From the sequence record MZ234013.1: a stretch of 64,000 bases of DNA. The stretch is one strand, 5' to 3'. This document shows, in pieces, positions 52,512 through 58,886 of the stretch. Under the pieces are notes generated by a model. That model searched no databases. It was not told the DNA's origin and saw nothing but the letters and a program-made list of their open reading frames with translations. How positions within the stretch are numbered: position 1 is the first letter of the stretch; the number at the start of each line of letters is the position of its first letter. The DNA is from Escherichia phage vB_EcoM-101112UKE3-1. A program made the translations under genes and the position numbers.

Positions 52512-53042
<531 letters not shown>

Positions 53043-55659: not shown

Positions 55660-55662
55660 CTG

Positions 55663-55691
55663 TTTACTTTTCCTCTTGACTGTGGTATAAT
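55663..55691 (+). promoter_or_regulatory. T4 early-type promoter upstream of regB
   Basis: gtttac, 17 nt, TGgTATAAT (perfect extended -10). Confidence 0.6.
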
Positions 55692-55718
55692 TTTTCTATC
55701 AGTTAAGAGGAGAATAAC

Positions 55719-56180
55719 ATGACTATCAATACAGAAGTTTTTATCCGTAGAAATAAGCTTCGTCGTCATTTTGAGTCGGAGTTTCGTCAAATTAACAATG
55801 AGATTCGTGAGGCATCAAAAGCAGCAGGGGTCTCATCGTTTCATCTAAAATATTCTCAGCATCTTCTTGATCGTGCAATTCAACGGGAGATTGATGAGAC
55901 ATATGTTTTTGAATTATTCCACAAAATAAAAGACCATGTTTTAGAAGTTAATGAATTCCTGAGTATGCCTCCGCGTCCTGACATTGACGAGGATTTTATT
56001 GATGGGGTTGAATATCGTCCTGGACGTTTAGAAATCACAGATGGAAATCTTTGGCTTGGATTTACAGTTTGTAAACCTAACGCGAAGTTCAAAGACCCGT
56101 CACTTCAATGTAGGATGGCAATTATCAACAGTCGTCGTTTACCAGGAAAGGCTTCTAAAGCAGTAATTAAAACTCAATGA
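55719..56180 (+). CDS. regB: RegB site-specific endoribonuclease
   Basis: 153 aa, same as T4 RegB; SD gaggag. Confidence 0.85.
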   Translation: MTINTEVFIRRNKLRRHFESEFRQINNEIREASKAAGVSSFHLKYSQHLLDRAIQREIDETYVFELFHKIKDHVLEVNEFLSMPPRPDIDEDFIDGVEYRPGRLEITDGNLWLGFTVCKPNAKFKDPSLQCRMAIINSRRLPGKASKAVIKTQ

Positions 56181-56187
56181 GGTAAGC

Positions 56188-56733
56188 ATGAGAAAAGCAC
56201 TACTCGCTGGTCTATTGGCCATTTCAATGATGGCACATAGCTCCGAGCATACTTTCAGTAATGTCCAACTCGATAACATGCGTTACGCGTATCAATTCGG
56301 GGAACAATTTTCTAAGGATGGAAAATATAAAACACACAAAAATATCCACAAGAGCGGATTAGGTCATATAATGGCTGCTATTTTATGGCAAGAAAGCTCT
56401 GGCGGAGTTAATTTAAAATCTAAACCAAAGCATCACGCTTATGGAATGTTCCAAAATTATTTGCCTACTATGCGAGCAAGAGTTAAGGAACTTGGTTATA
56501 ATATGACCGATGCTGAAATAAAAAGAATGTTGAATAAACGATCCAATTCAGCTTCCTGGGCGTACATTGAACTTTCTTATTGGTTAAATATACATAAGGG
56601 CGATATAAGAAAAGCAATATCCTCTTATAATTCGGGATGGAATGTTAAAGCTGGTTCTAAATATGCTTCTGAAGTCCTAGAAAAGGCTAATTACCTTAAA
56701 AATAATAAACTTTTGGAAATAGTAAATGACTAA
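56188..56733 (+). CDS. secreted lytic transglycosylase-like protein (SLT domain)
   Basis: Signal peptide MRKALLAGLLAISMMAHS; SLT-like motifs WQESSGG, YGMFQ, SYNSGWN. Confidence 0.6.
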   Translation: MRKALLAGLLAISMMAHSSEHTFSNVQLDNMRYAYQFGEQFSKDGKYKTHKNIHKSGLGHIMAAILWQESSGGVNLKSKPKHHAYGMFQNYLPTMRARVKELGYNMTDAEIKRMLNKRSNSASWAYIELSYWLNIHKGDIRKAISSYNSGWNVKAGSKYASEVLEKANYLKNNKLLEIVND

Positions 56734-57067
56734 AATTTTGGTTTTATGTATAGGATTAATTTCATTTTCTGCGTTAGCAGATACATCATATACTGAAATT
56801 AGAGAGTATGTAAACCGTACTGCCGCGGATTATTGTGGGAAAAATAAAGCATGCCAAGCTGAATTTGCGCAGAAATTAATATATGCATATAAAGACGGAG
56901 AAAGAGATAAATCAAGCAGATACAAAAACGATACATTATTAAAACGATATGCTAAAAAGTGGAATACCTTAGAATGTTCAGTTGCGGAGGAGAAAGATAA
57001 AGCCGCTTGTCATTCAATGGTTGACCGTTTGGTAGATTCTTATAATCGAGGATTGAGTACTAGATGA
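56726..57067 (+). CDS. secreted hypothetical protein (signal peptide, four Cys)
   Basis: MTKILVLCIGLISFSALA leader; 113 aa; overlaps upstream stop. Confidence 0.5.
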   Translation: MTKILVLCIGLISFSALADTSYTEIREYVNRTAADYCGKNKACQAEFAQKLIYAYKDGERDKSSRYKNDTLLKRYAKKWNTLECSVAEEKDKAACHSMVDRLVDSYNRGLSTR

Positions 57068-57531
57068 TTGTAAAATATATCAAGGGCGATATTGTCGCCC
57101 TTTTCGCTGAAGGTAAAAATATTGCGCATGGATGCAATTGTTTTCATACTATGGGTTCAGGCGTAGCGGGTCAATTAACCAAAGCTTTCCCTAAAATTTT
57201 GGAAGCTGATAAATTACAGACTGAATGGGGTGATGTAACTAAACTCGGTTCTTACTCAGTCTATGAAAAATACTTTAGGACTCATAAAGCGTATTGCTTC
57301 AACCTTTATACTCAATTTCAACCAGGGCCAAATTTTGAGTATTCCGCTTTAATGAATTGTATGCTAGAATTAAATGAGTTTGGTGAAAATAAACTGATTA
57401 AACCTACAATCTATATGCCTAGGATTGGTGCAGGCATAGGTAAAGGGAACTGGGATATTATTGAGGGGATTTTAGATACATATTCCTCTAAATTAGAAAT
57501 TGTGATTGTTGATTGGGAACCGTTATTATGA
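57064..57531 (+). CDS. TARG1/OARD1-like macrodomain protein (putative ADP-ribosyl hydrolase)
   Basis: YIKGDI...NIAHGCNCFHTMGSGVAGQL...MPRIGAGIGKG aligns by eye with human TARG1 (VKGDLF...SLAHCISEDCRMGAGIA...MPRIGCGLDRL). Confidence 0.6.
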   Translation: MIVKYIKGDIVALFAEGKNIAHGCNCFHTMGSGVAGQLTKAFPKILEADKLQTEWGDVTKLGSYSVYEKYFRTHKAYCFNLYTQFQPGPNFEYSALMNCMLELNEFGENKLIKPTIYMPRIGAGIGKGNWDIIEGILDTYSSKLEIVIVDWEPLL

Positions 57532-58113: not shown

Positions 58114-58295
58114 GTCTGAGTAAAGAACAAAAAGATAAATTGTTTGAGCTTATCCATGAACTTCTAGATGAGCATACAGAAGCAAACACCTTTTATGATG
58201 AATACGGCCCGCTATCTCCCGAACAGCAAGAAGAATTTGCTGATCGGTTTGATAAGAAAGAAAACGAATTAATAGCTTATGTGAATATGCTTTAA
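58110..58295 (+). CDS. small acidic hypothetical protein
   Basis: 61 aa; coupled to neighbours. Confidence 0.45.
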   Translation: MSLSKEQKDKLFELIHELLDEHTEANTFYDEYGPLSPEQQEEFADRFDKKENELIAYVNML

Positions 58296-58304
58296 GAAGG
58301 TGAT

Positions 58305-58886
58305 ATGGCGAGTTTAATTTTTACTTACGCAGCAATGAATGCTGGAAAATCTGCTTCTCTTTTGACTGCTGCACATAATTATAAAGAACGCGGAATGGGT
58401 GTATTAGTTCTTAAGCCTGCTATTGATACTCGCGATTCTGTCTGTGAAGTCGTTTCTCGCATTGGAATTAAGCAGGAAGCGAATATTATTACGGATGATA
58501 TGGATATTTTTGAGTTCTATAAATGGGCTGAAGCACAAAAAGATATTCATTGTGTATTTGTAGATGAAGCTCAGTTTTTAAAAACTGAACAGGTGCATCA
58601 ATTAAGTCGAATTGTTGATACATATAATGTTCCTGTTATGGCTTATGGGCTAAGGACTGATTTCGCTGGAAAATTATTTGAAGGTTCTAAAGAACTTTTG
58701 GCGATTGCAGATAAACTTATTGAACTAAAGGCAGTTTGTCATTGTGGTAAAAAAGCTATTATGACAGCTCGATTAATGGAAGATGGAACACCAGTTAAAG
58801 AAGGTAATCAAATCTGTATTGGTGATGAAATTTATGTTTCTTTGTGTAGAAAACATTGGAATGAATTAACTAAAAAGCTCGGTTAG
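58305..58886 (+). CDS. tk: thymidine kinase
   Basis: 193 aa; P-loop AAMNAGKS; C-terminal Zn-ribbon Cys pairs; matches T4 Tk. Confidence 0.9.
   Translation: MASLIFTYAAMNAGKSASLLTAAHNYKERGMGVLVLKPAIDTRDSVCEVVSRIGIKQEANIITDDMDIFEFYKWAEAQKDIHCVFVDEAQFLKTEQVHQLSRIVDTYNVPVMAYGLRTDFAGKLFEGSKELLAIADKLIELKAVCHCGKKAIMTARLMEDGTPVKEGNQICIGDEIYVSLCRKHWNELTKKLG

Follow-up and report, generated by a model that had tools for sequence, protein, structure and literature searches.

The window, which is the whole stretch of 64,000 nt analysed here, belongs to a Tequatrovirus that is not T4 itself; its part between 55700 and 57600 is closest to phage MLP2 (99.7% identity), and some 500 T4-like records match it at above 95% identity. 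The + strand genes follow the order of the T4 reference, regB, vs.1, vs, tk.4, tk.3/tk.2/tk.1 and tk (58305-58886, +). The first gene of the early unit regB-vs.1-vs-tk.4 is the endoribonuclease gene regB (55719..56180, +), recognised by Pfam PF10715 (E 1.4e-68) and by the T4 gene order. Next comes vs.1 (56188..56733, +), whose 181-aa precursor is predicted to give an exported lytic transglycosylase of the GH23/SLT-like type. Then follows vs (56726..57067, +); its 113-aa precursor is predicted to give an exported protein with four helices and four Cys, and the annotation of the gene reads 'valyl-tRNA synthetase modifier'. An earlier note on this DNA had singled out T4 vs.1 and vs for comparison, and the two ORFs are indeed their orthologues: Vs.1 is 100% identical to T4 Vs.1 (NP_049725; ORF 61.4), and Vs, a 2-residue deletion inside the signal peptide set aside, is 99% identical to T4 Vs (NP_049724). 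Nothing of substance distinguishes the pair from that of T4. The macro-domain gene tk.4 (57064..57531, +; Pfam Macro, PF01661), whose start overlaps the vs stop (ATGA), is treated here as downstream context outside the vs.1-vs module; a 2025 preprint (10.1101/2025.11.20.689424) named it AdfM and found it to be the single T4 gene needed against DarTG2 defence.

Transcription and translation signals

A T4-type early promoter lies upstream of regB (55662..55691, +), with GTTTACT, a 17-nt spacer and an extended -10 element, TGGTATAAT. Nothing else that resembles a promoter feeds vs.1 or vs. No MotA box is present between 52912 and 57293, which rules out a dedicated middle promoter for either gene; together with the early promoter before regB, this places vs.1 and vs among the early genes. 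The MotA-box pattern WWTGCTTYA has 27 matches in the window as a whole, where 12.3 would be expected and none of 100 shuffles reaches 27, and one copy is situated at 58286-58294, just before tk. The interval 55662-55718 holds, besides the early promoter, the Shine-Dalgarno region of regB, in which GGAG, the RegB cleavage motif, occurs; regB is known to be autoregulated, and the motif agrees with that.

The vs.1 stop and the vs start overlap by 8 nt (56726..56733, +), and vs has a weak Shine-Dalgarno sequence (GGAAA), implying translational coupling of the two genes. Beyond the pair, a perfect 8-bp GC-rich hairpin (AAGGGCGA-TATTG-TCGCCCTT) occupies positions 57082-57102, 15 nt past the vs stop and within the beginning of tk.4. 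On the minus strand (tail GATATATTTT) it has the score of an intrinsic terminator, on the plus strand weakly so; it may end antisense or late transcripts, or indicate a 3' end downstream of vs.

Vs.1 as a predicted exported GH23 enzyme

Manual and hydropathy analysis assigns to Vs.1 a signal peptide of n-h-c organisation with small residues at -3 and -1 (residues 1-18, MRK / ALLAGLLAISMMA / AHS|S; 56188..56241, +), and this character is kept in all 30 homologues in our comparison set (40-98% identity). With 13 residues, the h-region is too short for a SAR domain or a TM anchor, which points to a signal peptide of the cleavable type; a SAR-domain reading was rejected for this reason, the h-region being followed by AHS. 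The mature protein is predicted to have about 18.8 kDa, a pI of 9.7 and no Cys.

Pfam SLT (PF01464) matches residues 61-154 marginally, with 25.1 bits over a gathering threshold of 21.3 (E 1.4e-5). This resemblance is already published, and the enzyme part of our reading is known as a prediction: Nolan et al. (2006), who referred to earlier PSI-BLAST work, noted for vs.1 of six T4-like phages a marginal SLT match, and some GenBank records label vs.1 as 'transglycosylase SLT domain-containing protein'. The three SLT-like motifs listed in the earlier note were located in Vs.1. Motif I, E69-S-S-G-G (residues 69-73; 56392..56406, +), contains the predicted catalytic acid Glu69 (codon 56392-56394), which as part of WQESSxG is invariant in 30 of 30 homologues; motif II, G86-M-F-Q (residues 86-89; 56443..56454, +), is equivalent to GLMQ of Slt70; motif III, Y147-N-S-G (residues 147-150; 56626..56637, +), is of the AYNAG type. 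Within the same set G86, F88 and Q89 of motif II and Y147, N148 and G150 of motif III are also invariant. Alignment to the E. coli Slt C-domain by hhalign pairs ILWQESSGG...YGMFQNY with IARQESAWNP...SGLMQIM and places E69 on E505 of the Slt70 precursor, that is, on E478 of the mature enzyme; the alignment is weak (E 0.12), and its register agrees with the motifs and the fold. E478 is the established catalytic acid of Slt70.

Searching PDB sequences with Vs.1 alone or with a 30-sequence profile gave nothing significant, the output consisting of centrin noise and a weak match of motif III to the C-terminal AAYNTG motif of g-type lysozymes. Vs.1 represents a divergent branch, and fold comparison was needed. 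The AlphaFold2 model, built with the 30 homologues, has a pLDDT of 88, rising above 90 over the GH23 core; it predicts a lysozyme-like all-alpha fold with a substrate groove, and its top Foldseek matches are MltD, a GH23 chitinase and Slt. The two checks that the earlier note had set for its own proposal, a GH23-like fold and conservation of the putative catalytic Glu, thus came out in its favour. By sequence and model, Vs.1 has every computable attribute of Pfam SLT / GH23 family 1, with predicted activity.

Might Vs.1 instead be a catalytically dead pseudo-enzyme that binds murein and decorates or shields the peptidoglycan? The marginal SLT score, the PDB-sequence profile search with nothing significant in it, and the lack of any reported activity would be in line with such a role. 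Across wide divergence, however, it is precisely the catalytic Glu and motifs II and III that stay invariant, and the modelled GH23 core is complete at high confidence, and we consider this reading very improbable.

The identity of Vs.1 to family-1 lytic transglycosylases and other GH23 enzymes, including E. coli Slt70, MltE/EmtA and MltC, P. aeruginosa MltF and secreted enzymes of the EtgA type, is 13-19%. Unlike the family-1 enzymes, Vs.1 is phage-encoded and early, and it carries a conserved N-terminal helix (FSNxQLDNLxYAYxFGEQ, residues 23-40) and a second invariant Glu, E128 (WAYIELSYW), neither of which has a counterpart among the SLT motifs. By analogy, Vs.1 may work like the small secreted 'specialised' transglycosylases exemplified by EtgA.

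Vs as a predicted exported four-Cys protein

Vs matches phrog_1256 (E 5.2e-40), and PF26829 is found on all Vs homologues; Cauli_AT was discarded as its family, being a chance Pfam match below threshold. NCBIfam holds no family for Vs.1 or Vs, and a PDB sequence search with Vs returned nothing. When 1.84 billion representative proteins were searched exhaustively with a profile, Vs relatives turned up in only 28 clusters, all of 77-134 aa and all belonging to the same small phage family, with no bacterial or other distant relatives among them.

Its N-terminus has the same n-h-c signal organisation with small -3/-1 residues as that of Vs.1 (residues 1-18, MTK / ILVLCIGLISFS / ALA|D; 56726..56779, +), leaving a predicted mature protein of 11.0 kDa. 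An export signal is found at the N-terminus of every full-length family member examined, and the remotest full-length relatives inspected keep both the signal peptide and the four Cys. Five Vs-like proteins from IMG/VR loci (L042, L043, L045, L046 and L062; start MKKLFVLL..ALSGC) have a lipobox, L-S-G-C at positions 13-16, in place of the AxA site, which predicts a membrane-tethered partner in these relatives. For Vs of the window itself, reading Cys8 as a lipoprotein site was rejected, L-V-L-C being no lipobox and lying too near the N-terminus. A signal that is always present, drifts freely and is sometimes of the lipoprotein type is what one expects of an exported protein.

The AlphaFold2 model of Vs (pLDDT 79) consists of four helices, of which helices 1 and 2 span residues 20-37 and 41-60. 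The Cys-flanked loop between them, C37-G-K-N40-K-A-C43 (56834..56854, +), is as C-x-x-N-x-x-C the most conserved surface element of the protein: C37 and C43 are invariant in the diverse 28-sequence alignment and N40 is kept in at least 90% of it. The second invariant Cys pair, C84...C95 (56975..57010, +), flanks the turn between helices 3 and 4, and apart from these four Cys solely G58 and G109 are invariant. A cytoplasmic protein might in principle use four Cys to coordinate zinc, a point against export. The placement of the invariant pairs at helix-turn boundaries points, like the signal, to an exported Vs. In a reported experiment, full-length Vs with an N-terminal tag was insoluble when produced in the cytoplasm of E. 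coli, a hint that fits export. Overall, Vs looks by its sequence like an exported, disulfide-bonded periplasmic protein, and the second secreted, Cys-containing protein that the earlier note had placed in an overlapping gene can be equated with it.

Small exported proteins that bind a lysozyme-fold enzyme in the periplasm are a concept shared with T4 Spackle and its target, the gp5 lysozyme, and with Ivy, PliG and MliC. Spackle, like Vs, carries a signal peptide and is made early by T4; its mass is about 10 kDa. The Vs family is unrelated to Spackle, however, and the Vs fold and sequence match none of the known lysozyme/LT inhibitors compared (Spackle, Ivy, PliG, PliC/MliC). Ivy plugs lysozyme-type active sites with a disulfide-closed loop, and its resemblance to the C-x2-N-x2-C loop of Vs is a lead only.

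Linkage of vs.1 and vs

In six genera or groups (Mosigvirus, Gelderlandvirus, Dhakavirus, Jiaodavirus, Krischvirus and Acinetobacter T4-likes), vs.1 is directly followed by an ORF of 100-120 aa that encodes a signal peptide and shares the four Cys of Vs. A scan of IMG/VR anchored on Vs.1 yielded 55 loci, of which 51 were T4-like (at least 39% identity), and in 51 of 51 a Vs-like ORF (HMM E <= 6e-10) starts between -8 and +3 nt from the vs.1 stop. All but two of these ORFs are full length with the pattern C-x5/6-C ... C-x8-10-C (49/51). Of the two damaged ones (L027 and L045), one has lost the first Cys pair through an internal deletion (85 aa) and one is truncated (65 aa), with an intact vs.1 upstream in both; they may be natural loss-of-partner variants or assembly errors. 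Conversely, a locus search anchored on Vs, made with two subfamily alignments, led to 31 loci, all 31 of them on contigs already found via Vs.1. Genes further downstream of vs vary between genera.

The enzyme has a wider range than the pair. The Vs.1-like design, a signal peptide with E-S, G-x-F-Q-N and S-Y-N-A-G motifs, occurs in 2013 phage records, and Vs.1-like proteins exist outside the T4 group in Kuttervirus SJ3, Felixounavirus HY02 and Aeromonas phage phiAS4. These secreted SLT proteins (SJ3, L008 1453-2070; HY02, L009 1501-2049; phiAS4, L010 1486-2037) have no Vs-like partner. Thus Vs is not obligatory for the enzyme, and the secreted enzyme is much more widespread than the vs.1-vs pair.

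Published transposon data add a functional link. For T4 in LB, mean insertion counts are 26.6 in vs and 22.6 in vs.1, against 178.6 in regB, 289.6 in tk.4, 652 in vs.3 and 767 in tk.3, and other control samples show the same dip. In M9 glucose, vs falls further still and is the strongest hit of the screen (log2 -2.19, adjusted p 0), and vs.1 falls by -0.87 (p 0.0055, adjusted 0.155). For Bas37 the counts are 23.5 in vs and 73.8 in vs.1, with 325 and 324 in the flanking genes. Within the cluster, the fitness cost is therefore confined to vs and vs.1 in both T4 and Bas37. Polarity on vs, which is translationally coupled to vs.1, could account for the cost of vs.1 insertions; if it does not, that cost shows that the enzyme itself is useful. 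Considering the strict two-way linkage, the conserved overlap, the same predicted compartment and this transposon link together, we think that Vs.1 and Vs act together.

Discussion

The annotated function of vs is the main rival to a periplasmic partner of Vs.1. On that account Vs would be a cytoplasmic peptide binding the host valyl-tRNA synthetase (ValRS), its adjacency to vs.1 would reflect tight packing of unrelated early genes, as all genes of the region overlap or abut (e.g. vs/tk.4), and its hydrophobic N-terminus would be unused, inefficient or a source of dual localisation. The annotation stands in T4 and in hundreds of records, and a literature on the corresponding tau factor exists. 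Mueller and Marchin, in 1975 and 1977, reportedly described the binding of a phage peptide, about 10 kDa in size, to cytoplasmic ValRS in vivo, with a change in the properties of the synthetase, and Neidhardt, McClain and Marchin are said to have dealt with the same classical peptide. The tau factor, of roughly 10 kDa, is near the predicted mature Vs in mass, but it is the signal-cleaved form that matches, and such cleavage would imply export and passage to the periplasm. The ValRS function was assigned to ORF 60.9 / vs by the T4 community; the 1986 sequence record names the ORF 'ORF 60.9' only. T4 has already seen an ORF assigned wrongly from the map, the T4 reference record stating of gene 40 (L099 4550-4894) that it was 'misidentified as spackle gene'. 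The authors of the transposon study interpreted the minimal-medium phenotype of vs via the ValRS-modifier label, and the defect is indeed strongest where aminoacyl-tRNA supply could matter.

Against cytoplasmic action stand an export signal retained family-wide despite drift, with lipoprotein signals at five loci, the four Cys as the only invariant side chains of Vs, and linkage to a secreted enzyme at 51 of 51 and 31 of 31 loci where other neighbours vary. A full-text literature search returned no paper discussing a signal peptide on Vs. These predicted export features lower our confidence in the ValRS label, though not in the family membership of Vs, and we regard a purely cytoplasmic ValRS-binding Vs as unlikely while taking it seriously. 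The label could reflect either a historical mis-assignment or a second activity. A bolder proposal is that Vs has no action on ValRS at all and is an exported, disulfide-stapled partner, probably a regulator or inhibitor, of Vs.1; the true tau factor would then be encoded elsewhere between rI and e, the interval to which gene vs was mapped, and the minimal-medium defect of vs would belong to cell-wall biology. We put this forward tentatively, as a plausible proposal rather than the outcome we expect.

Another possibility is that Vs.1 serves as an auxiliary Sec-delivered endolysin, with Vs as a lysis inhibitor, the two tuning lysis timing. A separate endolysin gene, e, is present in the window at 52548, which makes Vs.1 an extra enzyme there, as the earlier note had it. 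T4 infections lacking e do not lyse. In the T4 transposon data e and the holin gene t are essential and vs.1 is non-essential, and the signals preceding vs.1 are early ones only; Vs.1 does not behave as a phage endolysin, which is required for lysis and controlled by holin. A precedent for an SLT endolysin nevertheless exists in T4-related myoviruses: Campylobacter phage F352 has a signal-peptide SLT endolysin of about 188 aa, and a small gene of about 106 aa, F379_024, overlaps an SLT endolysin gene and delays lysis (PMC7692668). Vs.1 shares with F352 Lys the combination of signal peptide and SLT domain and the size of about 180-190 aa; in Felixounavirus HY02 the Vs.1-like gene is directly 3' of rIIA and rIIB, with a spanin gene near. 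No specific sequence similarity is detected between Vs.1 and the F352 enzyme, however, so the resemblance is architectural only. The SLT enzymes of F352 and F379 are the endolysins of those phages, whereas the phage of the window keeps e, t and spanins; F379_024 lies upstream of its SLT gene and vs lies downstream of vs.1; and no export signal is reported for F379_024, whereas Vs has a predicted one. An endolysin role with Vs as its inhibitor is in our judgement improbable.

The explanation towards which we lean, and which we hold to be somewhat more likely than not, is that vs.1 and vs form an early, coupled pair encoding an exported GH23 enzyme and its periplasmic partner, engaged in non-lytic remodelling of murein. 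Early mRNA from the regB promoter would yield pre-Vs.1 and then, by translational coupling, pre-Vs; both would be exported by Sec and their signal peptides cleaved. Vs.1 would be set free in the periplasm, a single-domain enzyme with the goose-lysozyme/Slt fold (GH23, family-1 lytic transglycosylase) and, with Glu69 as catalytic acid, would cut murein glycan strands. Vs, a four-helix protein of about 11 kDa with probably two disulfides (C37-C43 and C84-C95), would most likely be a stoichiometric partner or regulator, restraining or directing Vs.1 in the periplasm. The outcome would be local remodelling during infection rather than lysis, since the phage can dispense with vs.1 but not with e and t, and infections without e fail to lyse despite an intact vs.1. 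If Vs restrains Vs.1, then loss of Vs should be worse than loss of Vs.1, especially in slow-growing cells; the M9 and Bas37 transposon patterns, with vs loss costlier than vs.1 loss, are as such restraint predicts. Possible purposes of the remodelling are envelope adaptation, passage for trans-envelope complexes, or the handling of superinfecting phage.

The observation made in the earlier note is confirmed, and its interpretation, an early periplasmic murein enzyme, is supported by the early promoter, the signal peptide and the GH23 motifs and fold, localisation and activity being computational claims. The less expected part, which goes beyond the known SLT prediction, is the predicted localisation of Vs and its obligate coupling to the enzyme. 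The sequence of Vs contradicts a functional label that is 50 years old. If Vs is periplasmic, the minimal-medium phenotype of vs needs a different explanation, and the name 'valyl-tRNA synthetase modifier', which the annotations of many hundreds of genomes have taken over, is misleading. About 2000 sequenced virulent myoviruses keep an early gene for a secreted GH23 protein although their endolysin is separate; if our reading is true, the vs.1-vs pair would be a new enzyme-plus-partner module through which the phage controls host murein during the latent period.
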